A DNA stretch of 64,000 nt from Dictyostelium discoideum (Eukaryota), in NCBI GenBank assembly GCA_000004695.1, contig CM000153.2:4736001-4800000 (forward strand), in the 5' to 3' direction. The stretch's first letter is position 1; every line of letters starts with the position of its first letter. Both the position numbers and the translations under genes were made by a program. Positions 29,267 through 34,804 of this stretch are shown one piece after another. The notes beneath the pieces are model-generated. The model made no database searches. It was not told the DNA's origin and saw only the letters and a program-made list of their open reading frames with translations.

Positions 29267-29815
29267 TTAATTAAATAATCTTAATGGTGGATTTGTTTTT
29301 GTACGAGATAAAACCATTTCCATAATCATTTTATTGTGAGAGACGTTTAAATCGAACTTTTCACCCTCTTTAACTATTACGCCATTAATTGAATTTACTT
29401 CGGTAGGTTGACCTCTGAGTATATCTTGTAACATACTTGAATAGTTAGCAGAAGTTTTCAAGACAATATCAGCAACATATTTAAATGCTTCATCTGAATC
29501 CTCTCCATATGGTAATGATATATTTTTTGCTTTACAAACACTTAATGCTTCAATGATAATTTTTTTCATTAAATTCTTGGAGTATTCATTCTCTAATAAT
29601 TGACCATTTGATACACCTAAAACTGCTGATAAAGGATTAATGGCAGCATTAGCCACCACTTTATTCCAAACCAAACCCTCTAAATCATCAGAGATATCAC
29701 TTGAAATTCCAGATTCATTTAAAATATCACAAAATGCTTTCAATGCTAAAATCTCTTCACGAGTGGAAGGTGGTGGAAATTGTGATAACAATTGCTGTTG
29801 TTGTAGTTGTTGTTG

Positions 29816-29848
<33 letters not shown>

Positions 29849-31611
29849 TAAATAAGGTGATGATAAAAATGTTGAACCAATACCAGTTTGTTTAACTGAG
29901 CCAGGAGATACTACAATTGCACCATTACTAGTTACACCTTGCCAAACATGGTTTTTCAAACCTTTATCAATATTAATTATACTTTCGAGTTCTTCACGAT
30001 TTCCAATACCATTTTGTAAAGTTAATACAGCAGCTTTAGGATTTCCACCAACCAATGTAGCGGCAGTTAATGCAGCTTGTTTAGTTGAGTTACTCTTTAC
30101 CAAAACCAATGCTAAATCTGGTGAAATACCATCTTTTAATACTTGCATTCCATCCAAGGTTGCTTTAATACCTTTAATATTCTCTTCTTTACCTTGAGGA
30201 TTAAAAAATTTCATTCCATTCTTATTGATACTTTCGACATGTTCTTTCCAAGCTGAAACCATCCAAACATCAGCAATACCTTTTGAAGCCAATTTTGCAC
30301 TAAAAAGACTTCCCATTGCACCTGCTCCAATCACAACGATCTTTGGTTTCCTTGAACCATTCAATGTCATTTTATTTGGTAAAATATTATTTTTAATTTC
30401 ATTATTAATTAATTTTGTTGAAATCTCTTCTGTTATTGGTGGTGTTGGTGTTAATTTGATTTTATCTTTTTCATTTTCATTTTCTTTAATTTGTGGTGAT
30501 ACTTGTGCCATTGTGGTAGTAGTAGTAGTATTAGGTACTATTACTTGTTGTTGTTGTTGCTGCTGTTGTTGTTGTTTTAATGCTTTATTTTGATTTAAAA
30601 TATTTTTATTTGATGATAAAATTGATGATTTATCAAATAATGAAGTTGATGTTGTATTACTATTTATAATTTTATCTAAAAATGGTGATAATTCAGATTC
30701 TTTCATTGAGAAAGAATGAGTAGGTGATGGAAATTCTCTTGATTCAACTTCATTTTTATAGTTTTTCAAAGATTGATCAATATTTTCTGATAGTGTTGCA
30801 TATTGTTTACAAAATTTAGGGACGAAATCTGAATATAGTCCCAATAGATCATGATAAACTAAAACTTGACCACTTGTACCATTACCAGCACCAATACCAA
30901 TGGTTGGAATCGATAGGGTATTAGTTATGGCCATAGCGGTTGCATGAGGTACCATTTCTAAAACAATAGCAAAACAACCTGCTTCTTGTAATGATTTTGC
31001 GTCCTCTAATAATGATAATGCTTCTTGTTCGGTTTTACCCTGTAATTTAAATCCACCTAGTGAAGTTGAAGTTTGTGGTGTTAGACCAATATGGCCGACA
31101 ACCAATATACCAGTATCACAAATTGCTTTAATCTTTTCAAATTGTTTTTTACCACCTTCCAATTTAATAGCATCAACACCACCTTCCTTTATTAAACGAA
31201 TTGCATTTGAAACCGCATCTTTTGTTGATGTTTCATAACTACCGAATGGCATATCACCAACTACAAATGACCTTTTACTACCTTTCATCACTGATTTACA
31301 ATGATAAATCATTTGTTCCATTGTCACTGATGTTGTACCACTCTCACCATTCATAACCATACCTAATGAATCTCCCACCAGTATCATATCCATTCCTGAT
31401 TTATCAACTATCTTTGAACTTGTAAAATCATATGCTGTAACCATTGAAATTGGTATACCATCTTTATATTTCTTTAAAATATCTAAAACTGTCTTTTTTT
31501 TATTTTCTCCCATTTCCTCTTTAACATGTGTTGAATAATTTAATCTTTGTTGTTGTTGTTGTTGTTGTTGATATTTTCCAAATAATTCATTTTTTTTATT
31601 ATTATAATTAA

Positions 31612-31645
<34 letters not shown>

Positions 31646-31777
31646 AATATTTAAACCATTGTTGGTAGGTAAAAATAATTTATTATTATTATTATTTAAG
31701 TTACTATATATTGATAATTTATTTTTAAATTTATTTATTATTTTAAATTGTTTATTGATTTTAATCATTATTTCCAA
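29267..31777 (-). CDS. Bifunctional pantoate-pathway enzyme: N-terminal 3-methyl-2-oxobutanoate hydroxymethyltransferase (PanB/KPHMT) fused to C-terminal 2-dehydropantoate 2-reductase (PanE/ApbA/KPR), 836 aa
   Basis: Single ORF. An N-terminal Asn-rich presequence, then the PanB core (ISMVTAYDFTSSKIVDKSGMDMILVGDSLGMVMNGESGTT…GDMPFGSY…AIKLEGG…VVGHIGLTPQ…VLEMVP). A Gln/Thr-rich linker follows. Then a KPR domain with Rossmann motif KIVVIGAGAMGSLFSAKL and the ApbA C-terminal domain (…VWNKVVANAAINPLSAVLGVSNGQLLEN…SMLQDILRGQPTEVNSINGVIV). Confidence 0.85.
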
Positions 31778-32924
31778 AAAAAAAAAAAAAAAAAAAAAAA
31801 GGTGTGTTTTTTAACAAAATAAATTATAGTTTTTTTTTTTTTTTTCCTAAAATGTTTATTGTATTTATCGAAAAATTATTAAAAAAAAAAAAAAGTGTGC
31901 GAGTGACAAAAAAAAAAAAAAAAACTATAACTAAAAATATATTAATATAAAATAAATAATAAATAAATATTTAAAATAAATAAATAAAATTATGAAATAA
32001 ATAAAATATTAATAATAATATTATAAATAAATATTAATTTTTTGTTATTTTTTTTTTTTTTATTACTATTAAAATAATGAATGAAACAATAAAATCTATA
32101 TATACAATTTCGATGACTAAAATTTAATTATGTAAAAAAAAATAATTAAAAGGGTGGTTTTTTTTTTTTTTTAATTATTTTTTTTTTTTTTATTTTTTTT
32201 TTTTTATTTTAATTTTTATTTTTTTATTTTTCCCAATATCTTTGCAAAATAGGTTCGTTTTCTGGAAGAATATTTTTATTATTTTTATTATTTTTTATTT
32301 TTTTTTTTTTTAATTAGTTTTTAATTTAAATTTGAAAAAAAAAAATAAAATAAAAAGTTTAAATAAGATAAATTTTGAAAAAAAAAAAAAAAAAATTAAT
32401 TTGAAAATAATTTTTTTAATTTGTGGTGTTATATTGAGACTTTTTTAGTTTTAAAACATGTCAAAAAAAAAAAAAAAACCATAAATTTCCAGAAATGTGG
32501 GTTGGGAAATTTAATTTTCTTTTTATTTTGGATCATTATATAAATATAATAAAAGTAATTTAATGTTGTCATTATTAAAAAAAATTTTGTTTTTTTTTTC
32601 TAATTTTATTTAATTTATTTTTTATTTTTTATTTTTTTTTTTAAAAAAAAAATTTATAAATTGAATTCTATATATACATTTATAAATAACTAATTTTATA
32701 AATTTTTAGAAAAAATAAGGGTGGTCGGATATAAAAATTTCGGCATTTATGTGGTGAAAAGTAATTTTGTGCGCTGGTTTTATTTTTTTATTTCCCTTAA
32801 AAAAAAAAATGATAGAAAAAAAAAAAAAAAATAAAAAAAAAAAAATAGAAAAAAAAATATACATACAACCAATTTATTTTTAAAATTATTTTTATTTTTT
32901 TTTTTTTTTTATTTTTTTTTATTT

Positions 32925-34804
32925 TTATTTATAACCAGTTTGAGAATATTTAAATAAGTTATTTTTAAAATCGTCAACTGGAGTTGGTTGTAAATATCTT
33001 GGTTGTGATTGTTGTGGTTGTAATGGTGGTGATTGATTATTAGGGGAAGATGAAGATGACGATGACGGAGTTGGAGTTACAGTTTGTGATTTCTTTTTAC
33101 CAGAAAGACTAAACCTTCTAGATTTCTTTCTTTCATGTGAAGGTGGTTGTTGTGGTGAAGATGATAATGGTGTTGATAAAGGTTCAGAGGGTGGTAAATT
33201 AATTGGATCAGTATCTCTAACTCTATCCAGTATTGGACTTTTATGTTTAATTTTTAATTTCTCTAATTCTGTTTGTTGACTTAATATATGATTTTTATTA
33301 TCTCCTCCTCCTCCTCCTCCTCCTACTTCTAAATTATTTTTATTTTTATTATTATTATCGCTATTATTGTCGCTATTATTATTATTTTTTAATTGTTTTT
33401 CATAATCACCAATAGGTATTAACGAATTTGGGGTTGATGATATATTTGTCGAAATTGTAGTTAATGATATATTATTTTCGTCATTCTTTTCATAGTCATT
33501 ATTATTATTATTACTACTACTATTATTATTATTACCATCATTTGTAATCATACCTCTTCCTTCATTATTATTTCTATTTAAGAATTTAAATTTCCATAAT
33601 TTAATTGAACTTGAATAATATCCTAATGAGTCTAAAATTGGGAATAATGCAAATTCCTAATATAAAATAAAATAAAATATTAATATTATATTATTATTAT
33701 TATTATATTATTGTTGTTTGATTAAAAAAAAAAAAAAAAAAGATGCCATACCAAAACACCAATTAATAAAACTACTATATCAACGAAAAAGAAAGCATTA
33801 AATAATGCTTGACTTATTTTACCAATATTTAATGTGAAAATTAAAACTACTTTAATTGCTACTTCTAATGGTAAAAATGCTATAAAACTGAATTGTAATA
33901 ATCTAATTCTATTTATTAGTGACCTATTAATAATTGTTTTTGAGAATTTTCTTGATATAAAAACTATAATAAATAATTATTATTTTATTGGAAGGATGAC
34001 AAATAAAATATATTAGTAAACTTCATTTTGATACATGTATTTTGTGTTTTGTTTTGTTTTGTTTTTTTTTTTTTTTTTTCTTCCAACACTTACTAAAAAA
34101 TAATAAAAATAAAACATAAAATATAGCAAATGCAGCAGTGCTAACAATTGGTACTAAACATTTTGATTCTTCATTATCGAATACAGTATATGCTATATTA
34201 ACCTTATCATTTAATGCATCTAAAATTAATAATACAATATGAACAATAATCAATGGTAACGAACATATAAATGCACATAAATAAACATAATCATTTGGGT
34301 CTTCAAAATTTAATCTATTTGTAAAAATTCTAAAAATTCCACTCTGATTATTATTATTATTACGACCTTTATCTCTACTACAAAATTTTAAAAAGTATTT
34401 ATAAAAAAAAAAAAAAAATTAGTTTATATTTTAATAAATTATTATTTATTATTTATTATTGAATTTACATACTTTGTTTTTGATTTAAGTGTAAATAATA
34501 CAGATAAAAAGAATAAGGGTTCAGCTAAACCTACAGTAAAGAATAAATGTAAACCACAAATTGCAGCAGAATGTGATTTTATACCAAATAAACCATCTGT
34601 ATTCCAAAGGTATTCATTACCCAACATTAAAAATACAACCCATATAAATGCTGAACTTGCTAGTAATGCTCTTGATTTCCAATACATATTAAACTCTAAT
34701 TTTCTATTCTTTATAATCACTACTATCACACCAATTAAAAATAATAATACAATCAATACAATGACAAATTCAATAATACCTAATATCTTTTGCCATGATT
34801 CCAT
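32925..34804 (-). CDS. Multi-pass membrane protein with Ser/Pro/Gln-rich C-terminal tail, 4 exons: 34804..34463, 34376..34094, 33953..33751, 33657..32925
   Basis: Exon 1 (MESWQKILGIIEFVIVLIVLLFLIGVIVV…) ends AAA ACA AA|GTATGT. Acceptor ttttgtag|T AGA GAT gives …NRDKGRNNNNNQSGIFRIF…CLVPIVSTAAFAIFYVLFLLFF (ORF 34023..34253 fragment). Donor TTT A|GTAAGTG avoids read-through into a poly-K artefact. Exon 3 ttattatag|TT TTT ATA…GVL ends TTG|GTATGG. Exon 4 atattag|GAA TTT GCA… reads into ORF 32925..33551. Each junction is phase-consistent. About 7 hydrophobic helices. Family not recognised. Confidence 0.5.

Follow-up and report, generated by a model that had tools for sequence, protein, structure and literature searches.

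In the 64,000-nucleotide stretch of Dictyostelium discoideum DNA analysed here (the window), one uninterrupted reading frame on the minus strand encodes two successive enzymes of pantothenate synthesis. A ketopantoate hydroxymethyltransferase (PanB) is followed in the same polypeptide by a ketopantoate reductase (PanE). With high confidence, the whole is best explained as the gene of D. discoideum AX4 that encodes a bifunctional enzyme forming pantoate (XP_637588.1 / Q54LH3).

The coding sequence is a single exon (29267..31768, minus strand) of 833 codons plus a TAA stop (29267-29269), and begins with an ATG at 31768-31766. Its product matches the AX4 protein XP_637588.1 / EAL64074.1 / UniProt Q54LH3 with 100% identity over 100% of the length. 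Because the two agree end to end, the public gene model is the same intron-less reading frame. The fusion protein is thus already in public databases, where its product name, "3-methyl-2-oxobutanoate hydroxymethyltransferase" (XP_637588.1 / Q54LH3), covers the PanB half only.

Pfam families occur along the protein in the order PF02548, PF02558, PF08546. All three are the families expected for a complete PanB followed by a complete PanE, as the preliminary description had claimed, and all score above their curated thresholds.

The protein begins with an Asn-rich, basic extension (residues 1-90; 31499..31768, minus strand) that, judged by its composition and its pLDDT, is a putative mitochondrial presequence. 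The extension has no Pfam match, its GC3 is 0.078, and its AlphaFold2 pLDDT stays under 50 from residue 1 to 83. Among its first 60 residues are nine Lys or Arg and no Asp or Glu; E61 is the first acidic residue.

Just before PanB lies R75-L-N-Y78-S79 (31532..31546, minus strand), a candidate processing site and an instance of the conserved pattern Arg-x(1-2)-Tyr/Phe-Ser/Thr. In the alignment of named fusion relatives, Y78 and S79 hardly vary. The pattern R-x(1-2)-[YF]-[ST] precedes PanB in 35 of 50 fusions, and in 34 of these it falls no more than 25 residues from the start of the domain. In D. discoideum an additional residue separates the Arg from the Tyr, giving RLNYS where most relatives have RxYS.

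A basic, acid-free extension ending in R-x-x-Y-S may well be a mitochondrial presequence, with R-L-N-Y-S as the candidate cleavage site. One presequence would then import both enzymes, by analogy with the KPHMT-KPR protein of Toxoplasma. The Asn-rich extension suggested earlier is present, and its proposed targeting role is plausible in view of the charge bias and the conserved motif.

The alternative is a cytosolic protein, in which the extension would be Asn-rich low complexity of the kind typical of Dictyostelium and would have no targeting role. Asn and Gln runs do occur throughout the fusion protein and its neighbours, and the Asn runs that dominate the N-terminus are common in Dictyostelium proteins of every compartment. 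The best helical hydrophobic moment of the N-terminus is modest (0.40), and 15 of the 50 relatives have no N-terminal extension at all. A cytosolic location is nevertheless unlikely, given the excess of basic over acidic residues, the recurrence of the motif across widely separated lineages with constant spacing to the domain, and the mitochondrial location of the Toxoplasma orthologue-type enzyme.

That enzyme, T. gondii KPHMT-KPR (TGME49_257050), is bifunctional and has been placed in the mitochondrion by experiment (PMC8764084, PMC8717973), where it co-localises with mitochondrial HSP70 (PMC8764084). The preliminary description had mentioned a comparable fusion in Toxoplasma, and these reports bear this out. 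A mitochondrial enzyme in Toxoplasma fits with the targeting-like N-terminal region in D. discoideum. Plant and yeast PanB homologues are also mitochondrial.

In both organisms PanB precedes PanE within one polypeptide and PanC is encoded separately. For D. discoideum the PanB-PanE order is seen in the single reading frame and in the identical reference protein, and it recurs in transcriptome-derived relatives. The Toxoplasma protein is much larger, at 144 kDa against about 93 kDa (computed from 833 residues), and its sequence lies outside the 120 best relatives of the D. discoideum protein; the likeness described here is one of architecture. Localisation and dispensability are known for the Toxoplasma enzyme, whereas the D. 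discoideum protein is known from sequence.

The N-terminal half (residues 91-356; 30701..31498, minus strand) is a PanB-type ketopantoate hydroxymethyltransferase, with the activity (EC 2.1.2.11) predicted from profiles, structure matches and a model. PF02548 (Pantoate_transf) matches at E 1.6e-111 with 372.3 bits against a cut-off of 28.7, over profile positions 1-258 of 259. Two NCBIfam models agree, TIGR00222 panB (321.8 bits; curated cut-off 207.55) and NF001452 (359.3; cut-off 272). In sequence searches, five solved PanB structures were matched at E 1e-55 or better, with 3ez4, 1oy0 and 1m3u at E 1e-57 to 1e-60.

The AlphaFold2 model of this half has eight strands (107-111, 128-131, 168-172, 200-204, 223-227, 267-271, 289-292 and 300-303) alternating with helices at a pLDDT above 90, the arrangement of a (beta/alpha)8 barrel. 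Residues D133, S134, D172, K202, E204, H226 and E271 align with the metal-binding and catalytic residues of E. coli PanB, D45, S46, D84, K112, E114, H136 and E181. All seven are invariant in 50 fusion proteins.

The two enzymes are joined by a linker (residues 357-475; 30344..30700, minus strand) made up of a short conserved helix (357-370), a predicted helix that includes a poly-Gln run (380-407), and a disordered stretch rich in Thr, Asn and Lys. The Gln/Thr-rich linker described earlier is thus present. It is mostly low-complexity, with a GC3 of 0.076 and no Pfam match at E up to 10. AlphaFold2 assigns a pLDDT above 90 across both enzymes, about 86-89 to the block of helices 357-370 and 380-407, and below 50 to residues 409-471. 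The first helix is shared with bacterial PanB, in which a short helix (HxFxMxxxE...) likewise follows the C-terminus of the domain. Measured between the equivalents of H351 and G481, the connection spans 32-142 residues in 50 relatives; linkers of the D. discoideum group are the longest, at 124-142 residues against a median of 55.

A decayed PanC was considered as the source of the linker and rejected, since triple fusions have the order PanB-PanE-PanC by their Pfam coordinates and the linker gives no Pantoate_ligase signal at E up to 10.

The preliminary description held that the fusion implies substrate channelling. In its strict form, this would mean that the fusion exists to pass ketopantoate from the PanB site to the PanE site along a defined path between the domains. 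The two domains do catalyse consecutive steps, the domains of triple fusions stand in pathway order, and the helices at 357-370 and 380-407, whose prediction is fairly confident, might pack against a domain. A connecting segment that varies from 32 to 142 residues, is mostly low-complexity in D. discoideum and includes about 60 residues predicted to be disordered nevertheless makes such a path quite unlikely. The model itself, with a pTM of 0.49, gives the two domains no fixed relative placement, and the same two enzymes work as separate proteins in bacteria. Channelling is therefore not supported as a consequence of fusion.

A low-complexity, partly disordered linker of variable length argues against a built channel and for tethering and co-import. 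Fusion would then pay off by fixing expression at 1:1, by letting both enzymes use one targeting signal, and by keeping the active sites close together on a flexible tether. By analogy with bacterial PanB, the PanB half probably oligomerises, in which case the reductase domains would be arrayed on its periphery.

The C-terminal half is a ketopantoate reductase of the PanE/ApbA type, its activity (EC 1.1.1.169) being predicted from context and conserved residues. It begins with an NAD(P)-binding Rossmann domain (residues 476-640; 29849..30343, minus strand), which matches PF02558 (ApbA) at E 5.4e-28 with 97.9 bits against a cut-off of 22.2. The helical, substrate-binding domain that ends the protein (residues 669-833; 29270..29764, minus strand) matches PF08546 (ApbA_C) at E 1.1e-32 with 113.5 bits against 22.7. 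Solved KPR structure is matched at E 1e-31, and residues 2-142 of T. kodakarensis KPR (5hws/5ayv) match the Rossmann domain.

Between the two sub-domains lies a low-complexity Asn/Gln insert (about residues 641-668; 29765..29848, minus strand), recognised from the alignment and from its pLDDT of about 58-64. It appears as a 27-residue gap against a bacterial PanE, and is shorter or missing in other dictyostelids.

The Rossmann domain carries the GxGxxG dinucleotide-binding motif as G481-A-G483-A-M-G486, and further along Q585-N586-G587. Across 50 fusions G483, Q585, N586 and G587 are invariant, and 90% or more retain G481 and G486. Because phmmer leaves the N-domain of E. coli PanE unaligned, the equivalence of Q585-N586-G587 to E. 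coli N98 is put forward only as probable. In the C-terminal domain K703, N707, N711, N721, N775, S778, D782 and E790 correspond to E. coli K176, N180, N184, N194, N241, S244, D248 and E256. Every mapped E. coli PanB or PanE catalytic or ligand residue is invariant or at least 90% kept in the 50 fusions.

It is very unlikely that this half is some other ApbA-family enzyme, acting on another 2-oxoacid or as another NAD(P)H oxidoreductase, and fused to PanB by chance. The ApbA family does include enzymes with other substrates, and identity to a bacterial PanE encoded next to panB is 31%. The narrow NCBIfam "equivalog" models for PanE, which describe particular bacterial clades, all stay under their cut-offs (for example NF005092, 160.5 against 500; NF005093, 133 against 308). 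Those scores limit the claim to membership of the apbA_panE subfamily without contradicting it, as the broad subfamily model TIGR00745 is passed with 216.6 against 141.35. Since only this model is passed, the substrate of the reductase has to be judged from its context and its conserved residues. Both speak for ketopantoate: all eight mapped E. coli PanE residues are conserved, triple fusions place the PanE domain between PanB and PanC, and panE lies between panB and panC in bacterial operons.

In the ORF listing the reading frame is open over 836 codons (29267..31777, minus strand) and free of internal stops, whereas the two remaining frames of that strand contain 67 and 124. At the base composition of the window, 836 stop-free codons have a probability of about 5e-35, and the 119 codons of the linker about 1.3e-5. 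The single uninterrupted frame with PanB upstream of PanE, as first described, is borne out. The length then given, 836 residues, is wrong and should be 833, because bacterial-code (table-11) ORF calling had picked a TTG at 31777 as the start. This spurious start lies inside a run of 25 T, read from the sequence directly upstream of the ATG (31776..31800, minus strand).

No missed intron or frameshift separates the domains, as the frame is open and the AX4 reference protein is co-linear with it. An intron in the linker (GTAATAG...CACAAG, about 30500-30545) was rejected on the same two grounds, and also as too short and too GC-normal for Dictyostelium. It is extremely improbable that the single frame is an artefact of gene model or assembly, whether it joins two separate genes or conceals an intron or frameshift within the low-complexity linker. 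The GC3 of the linker is much like that of non-coding Dictyostelium DNA, and in one metagenomic relative the ApbA_C part was cut off by the gene caller. The frame nevertheless contains no stop even across the linker (P about 1e-5), and the AX4 protein is identical from first to last residue. The same fusion is also found as one frame in genomes assembled independently of one another, from four Dictyostelium strains or species and from four further dictyostelid genera, and in ORFs of de novo transcriptomes (EukProt TRINITY entries).

The fusion had been thought unusual among eukaryotes, and this proved wrong. Among the 120 best database relatives, about 66 have the same PanB-PanE architecture and about 23 more are PanB-PanE-PanC. 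Carriers of one or the other include all sampled dictyostelids, other Amoebozoa, Thecamonas, Capsaspora, Naegleria, Acrasis, Perkinsus, a choanoflagellate and Vitrella; Perkinsus and Vitrella belong to the Alveolata. A literature search returned nothing specific on a eukaryote-wide PanB-PanE fusion.

The fusions of Polysphondylium, Acytostelium, Cavenderia, Heterostelium, Planoprotostelium, Balamuthia, Thecamonas, Capsaspora, Naegleria, Acrasis and Perkinsus share the D. discoideum architecture and have R-x-Y-S before PanB. Identity to the D. discoideum protein is 37-61% in the named set and reaches down to 32% in the set of 50 sequences. Extra poly-Asn and poly-Gln runs, at the N-terminus, in the linker and in the PanE hinge, set the D. 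discoideum group apart from other protist fusions.

Trifunctional proteins are found in Salpingoeca rosetta, Vitrella brassicaformis and many protist or metagenome sequences. They have a homologous PanB-PanE core in the same order, with PanC as a third, C-terminal domain, whereas the PanC of D. discoideum is a separate gene elsewhere in the genome. Short metagenome matches of about 610 residues were suspected of being bacterial. This was rejected, as they sit among eukaryotic-type genes (Rad9, PQ-loop, ArgJ).

The separate PanB and PanE proteins of bacteria (E. coli 1m3u; 1ks9/1yjq/2ofp) have the same two folds and the same catalytic residues, but lack the presequence, the low-complexity linker and the Asn/Gln insert in PanE. 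Bacteria with the most similar PanB carry panB-panE(-panC) operons. The two genes are adjacent on the same strand in Chloroflexota, Desulfobacterota and some Bacillota, sometimes with a 4-nt overlap, and the order is panB-panE in 24 of 29 loci. None of these 29 prokaryotic loci holds a PanB-PanE fusion; their tblastn matches over both halves were rejected as fusions, each resolving into two adjacent reading frames.

The three eukaryotic fusion architectures mirror three gene orders of bacterial operons. In a rough neighbour-joining tree, 78 of 80 fused PanE domains fall on one side of a split that contains no sampled bacterial PanE. It is possible, and offered tentatively, that the eukaryotic PanB-PanE, PanB-PanE-PanC and PanB-PanC fusions all trace back to a single bacterial-type panB-panE-panC operon that lost its stop codons. 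Such fusions would be an old shared trait of eukaryotes (Amoebozoa, Apusomonadida, Holozoa, Heterolobosea, Alveolata). Fungi and plants would later have split or replaced them, and on at least one occasion they would have reached an animal, the oribatid mite Oppia nitens. If this origin is true, the "missing" ketopantoate reductase of many protist reconstructions would be hidden in these proteins, because public names give the PanB half only.

Within the pathway, the PanB half would act as a Mg2+-dependent enzyme that transfers a hydroxymethyl group from 5,10-methylene-tetrahydrofolate to alpha-ketoisovalerate, yielding ketopantoate. The PanE half would reduce ketopantoate to pantoate with NAD(P)H, and a separate PanC would ligate the product with beta-alanine to give pantothenate. 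D. discoideum has a panC gene, DDB_G0288935 (PMC5928759). The 64-kb window contains no second panB or panE copy and no panC by tblastn. A six-domain PanC profile searched against the protein database gave no Dictyostelium among the 120 matches listed, nearly all of which are nameless or from bacteria or metagenomes.

The fusion and the panC gene together make D. discoideum very likely a prototroph for vitamin B5. The vitamin cocktails that papers give for Dictyostelium media omit pantothenate, but they are used in the complex medium HL5 and so do not prove prototrophy. These same six vitamins also go into the defined medium FM. A microarray feature that shares the product name, and may represent this gene, changes expression when D. 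discoideum is on Pseudomonas (PMC2474670). The searchable literature yielded no enzyme assay, localisation or knockout for the D. discoideum fusion protein.

The fusion is already known and common in protists, hence ordinary, and it matters little beyond housekeeping. Its pattern is a textbook-style joining of consecutive pathway steps and a modest lead for evolutionary study. For the organism, it confirms that a single D. discoideum protein covers steps one and two of pantothenate synthesis. The PanB-only public name under-describes that protein, so its ketopantoate reductase could be missed in automated metabolic reconstructions.

The minus-strand open frame extends from 31777 down to 29267 and has 836 codons if it is begun at a TTG, as an ORF lister does. 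This TTG (31777) lies within a 25-nt run of T. The first ATG (31768-31766) is found three codons inside that frame and, since the host is a eukaryote, the product is 833 aa long, which corrects the 836 aa of the preliminary description. The claim of a single uninterrupted ORF stands: the coding frame contains no internal stop, compared with 67 and 124 in the remaining two minus-strand frames, and the reference protein of D. discoideum AX4 (XP_637588.1 / EAL64074.1 / UniProt Q54LH3) is 100% identical, from end to end, to the 833-aa translation. This match identifies the window as Dictyostelium discoideum DNA. At 77% A+T, the probability of 836 open codons is about 5e-35, and that of an open 119-codon linker alone is about 1.3e-5. 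Public annotation already includes this gene, with a model that is the identical ORF without introns. Its product name, '3-methyl-2-oxobutanoate hydroxymethyltransferase', covers only the first (PanB) half and is incomplete, a point worth passing on.

The identification as PanB followed by PanE is correct, and the original observation is confirmed save for the start codon. The expected Pfam families are matched in the expected order: Pantoate_transf (PF02548, E 1.6e-111, covering positions 1-258 of a 259-position profile), ApbA (PF02558, E 5.4e-28) and ApbA_C (PF08546, E 1.1e-32). The protein also passes the NCBIfam panB equivalog TIGR00222 (321.8 bits, cut-off 207.55) and the apbA_panE subfamily model TIGR00745 (216.6, cut-off 141.35), and none of the narrow NCBIfam PanE equivalog models, which represent particular bacterial clades. 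Among solved structures, those of PanB match with E values between 1e-57 and 1e-60, and the best match to a ketopantoate reductase reaches 1.8e-31.

Alignments converted to E. coli numbering allow individual residues to be compared. D45, S46, D84, K112, E114, H136 and E181 of E. coli PanB correspond to D133, S134, D172, K202, E204, H226 and E271. In PanE, K176, N180, N184 and N194 correspond to K703, N707, N711 and N721, and N241, S244, D248 and E256 to N775, S778, D782 and E790. All of these positions, which have functional roles in the E. coli enzymes, are conserved. Across 50 aligned fusions, each is invariant or kept in at least 90%. An AlphaFold2 model built from this alignment has pLDDT >90 over both enzyme halves. 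Its PanB half shows eight strands that alternate with helices, and its PanE half shows a Rossmann domain followed by a helical one.

Two regions lie outside the enzyme domains. Neither residues 1-90 nor the linker (residues 357-475) matches any Pfam family at E up to 10, and their third-position GC is 0.078 and 0.076, respectively, compared with about 0.16-0.21 in the domains. The first 60 residues contain nine Lys/Arg and no Asp/Glu. The N-terminus is predicted by AlphaFold2 to be disordered except for a short helix at residues 5-15, and R75-L-N-Y78-S79 closes the extension directly ahead of PanB. Of the 50 fusion proteins, 35 carry an R-x(1-2)-[YF]-[ST] motif, in 34 cases at most 25 residues from the domain start; proteins that lack it mostly lack any N-terminal extension. 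This pattern is as expected of a mitochondrial presequence with a candidate Arg-2/Arg-3 type processing site. Such a reading agrees with the location of Toxoplasma KPHMT-KPR, which is mitochondrial by experiment (PMC8764084).

The linker opens with a short helix (residues 357-370) that is conserved among fusions and has its counterpart at the C-terminal end of those bacterial PanB proteins that are closest in sequence. A second predicted helix, at residues 380-407 (window 30548-30629), takes in a poly-Gln run of ten; it is long, with a block pLDDT near 88-89. At the aligned position, other dictyostelids carry a helix rich in Lys and Glu (…LKELxxKEKEIE…), and the helical element is dictyostelid-specific. 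The last ~60 residues have pLDDT below 50. The PanE hinge carries a 27-residue Asn/Gln insert with no counterpart in the one bacterial PanE compared.

The gene and fusion type are already known. The preliminary description is right about a comparable fusion in Toxoplasma: reviews of apicomplexan CoA metabolism describe a bifunctional KPHMT-KPR in coccidians and Perkinsus, and a trifunctional ORF in chromerids (PMC8717973). Together with these reviews, the database relatives contradict the view that the fusion is unusual among eukaryotes. In an approximate hand count of precomputed Pfam architectures, the best 120 relatives comprise about 66 with PanB and PanE, 23 with PanB, PanE and PanC, 18 with PanB and PanC, and 13 with PanB alone or with unrelated domains. 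Sources of PanB-PanE include four Dictyostelium strains or species, Polysphondylium, Acytostelium, Cavenderia, Heterostelium, Planoprotostelium and Balamuthia, as well as Thecamonas, Capsaspora, Naegleria gruberi, N. fowleri, Acrasis and Perkinsus. A EukProt entry already bears the name 'putative fused 3-methyl-2-oxobutanoate hydroxymethyltransferase + 2-dehydropantoate...'. The named triple fusions, those of Salpingoeca rosetta and Vitrella brassicaformis, have their domains in pathway order (PanB-PanE-PanC) by Pfam coordinates.

In the public model of the Heterostelium album protein (P0010, 1097 aa), the PanE Rossmann domain is about 50 residues short, and a C-terminal extension of ~270 aa carries a PhyH domain (PF05721), probably a sign of a mis-merged gene model and not a real third domain. 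On a 2.9-Mb ENA contig (L004:6001-8294), the ApbA_C part is called as a separate overlapping 148-aa ORF, which suggests a frameshift, intron or sequencing error at the PanE hinge. Two JGI metagenome contigs of 138 and 322 kb (L002:4791-7833 and L003:4791-7833) encode a 610-aa PanB-PanE fusion with a separate panC 330 nt upstream on the same strand, among eukaryotic-type neighbours (Rad9, PQ-loop, ArgJ). This is an operon-like pantothenate gene pair in a compact eukaryotic genome.

A fusion is also found in the oribatid mite Oppia nitens (scaffold JAPNUB010000033.1, 69-87 kb of 892 kb; L001:8001-10359). The protein (P0011, 742 aa) ranks right after the dictyostelids at 742 bits, with 58% identity in the PanB part. 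At 2359 nt, the gene would contain ~130 nt of intron, and it is flanked by intron-bearing MFS sugar-transporter genes. This copy is apparently integrated in the genome and is worth passing on; it may represent eukaryote-to-animal horizontal transfer of the entire pantoate module. Other mites acquired panB and panC from bacteria (PMC7738191).

A prokaryotic scan, with one genome per species, returned 80 loci, and both query halves are matched by tblastn in 29. None of the 29 has a single PanB-PanE ORF by stop-codon scan (three loci were inspected); the two ORFs are always adjacent, and in an Ardenticatenaceae contig (L005:2821-5713) they overlap by 4 nt (ATGA). The gene orders are panB-panE-panC (12/80), panB-panE (12/80), panE-panB (5/80), panB-panC (27/80) and panB alone within the flank (24/80). 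Head-to-tail panB, panE and panC occur in Chloroflexota (Anaerolineae, Ardenticatenaceae) and some other bacteria (L005, L013, L014, L023, L029, L030, L039, L042, L050, L067, L070, L078), in the domain order of the eukaryotic triple fusions. By these counts, each of the three fusion architectures of eukaryotes has its own counterpart among the prokaryotic operon orders, a pattern worth passing on. In a rough neighbour-joining PanE tree (Kimura-corrected p-distances, biased sample), 78 of 80 fused PanE domains fall on one side of a split without any sampled bacterial PanE, and triple fusions are not monophyletic. The tree would fit an operon-like ancestor that underwent fusion once or a few times, and is far from decisive.

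By tblastn, the 64-kb window has neither a panC nor another copy of panB or panE. The convergent neighbour (25629-28568, plus strand, 979 aa) is an unrelated Integrator-subunit-4-like HEAT protein, with the Integrator subunit 4 C-terminal domain (PF25458, E 6.9e-8), HEAT repeats and very long tracts of Gln and of Asn. Because the ORF lister begins it at TTG, this ORF is probably just the larger exon of its gene. Two further unrelated minus-strand ORFs that flank the fused gene, a Lys/Glu-rich one of 136 aa (28609-29019) and a Ser/Asn/Pro-rich one of 208 aa (32925-33551), match no Pfam family. Standard Dictyostelium vitamin supplements (biotin, B12, folate, lipoate, riboflavin, thiamine) lack pantothenate, and defined FM medium has the same six vitamins. 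The supplements do not prove prototrophy, because the source papers add them to complex medium. A D. discoideum microarray feature named '3-methyl-2-oxobutanoate hydroxymethyltransferase', which may correspond to this gene, is down-regulated on Pseudomonas (PMC2474670).

The best-supported reading is a bifunctional pantoate-forming enzyme. The PanB half would convert alpha-ketoisovalerate and methylene-THF to ketopantoate, the PanE half would use NAD(P)H to reduce this to pantoate, and the last step, to pantothenate, would fall to a separate PanC. The preliminary description held that fusion implies substrate channelling, but this is not supported. The tether speaks against a built channel, as it is disordered and variable: between the equivalents of H351 and G481 it spans 32-142 residues in 50 relatives (median 55), and is longest in the D. 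discoideum group. So does the AlphaFold2 model, whose pTM of 0.49 points to no fixed placement of the two domains. Because bacterial PanB forms a decamer, the bifunctional enzyme probably forms an oligomeric PanB core with reductase domains attached outside. The advantage of the fusion likely lies in having both activities imported by one presequence, in fixed 1:1 amounts, and kept close together.
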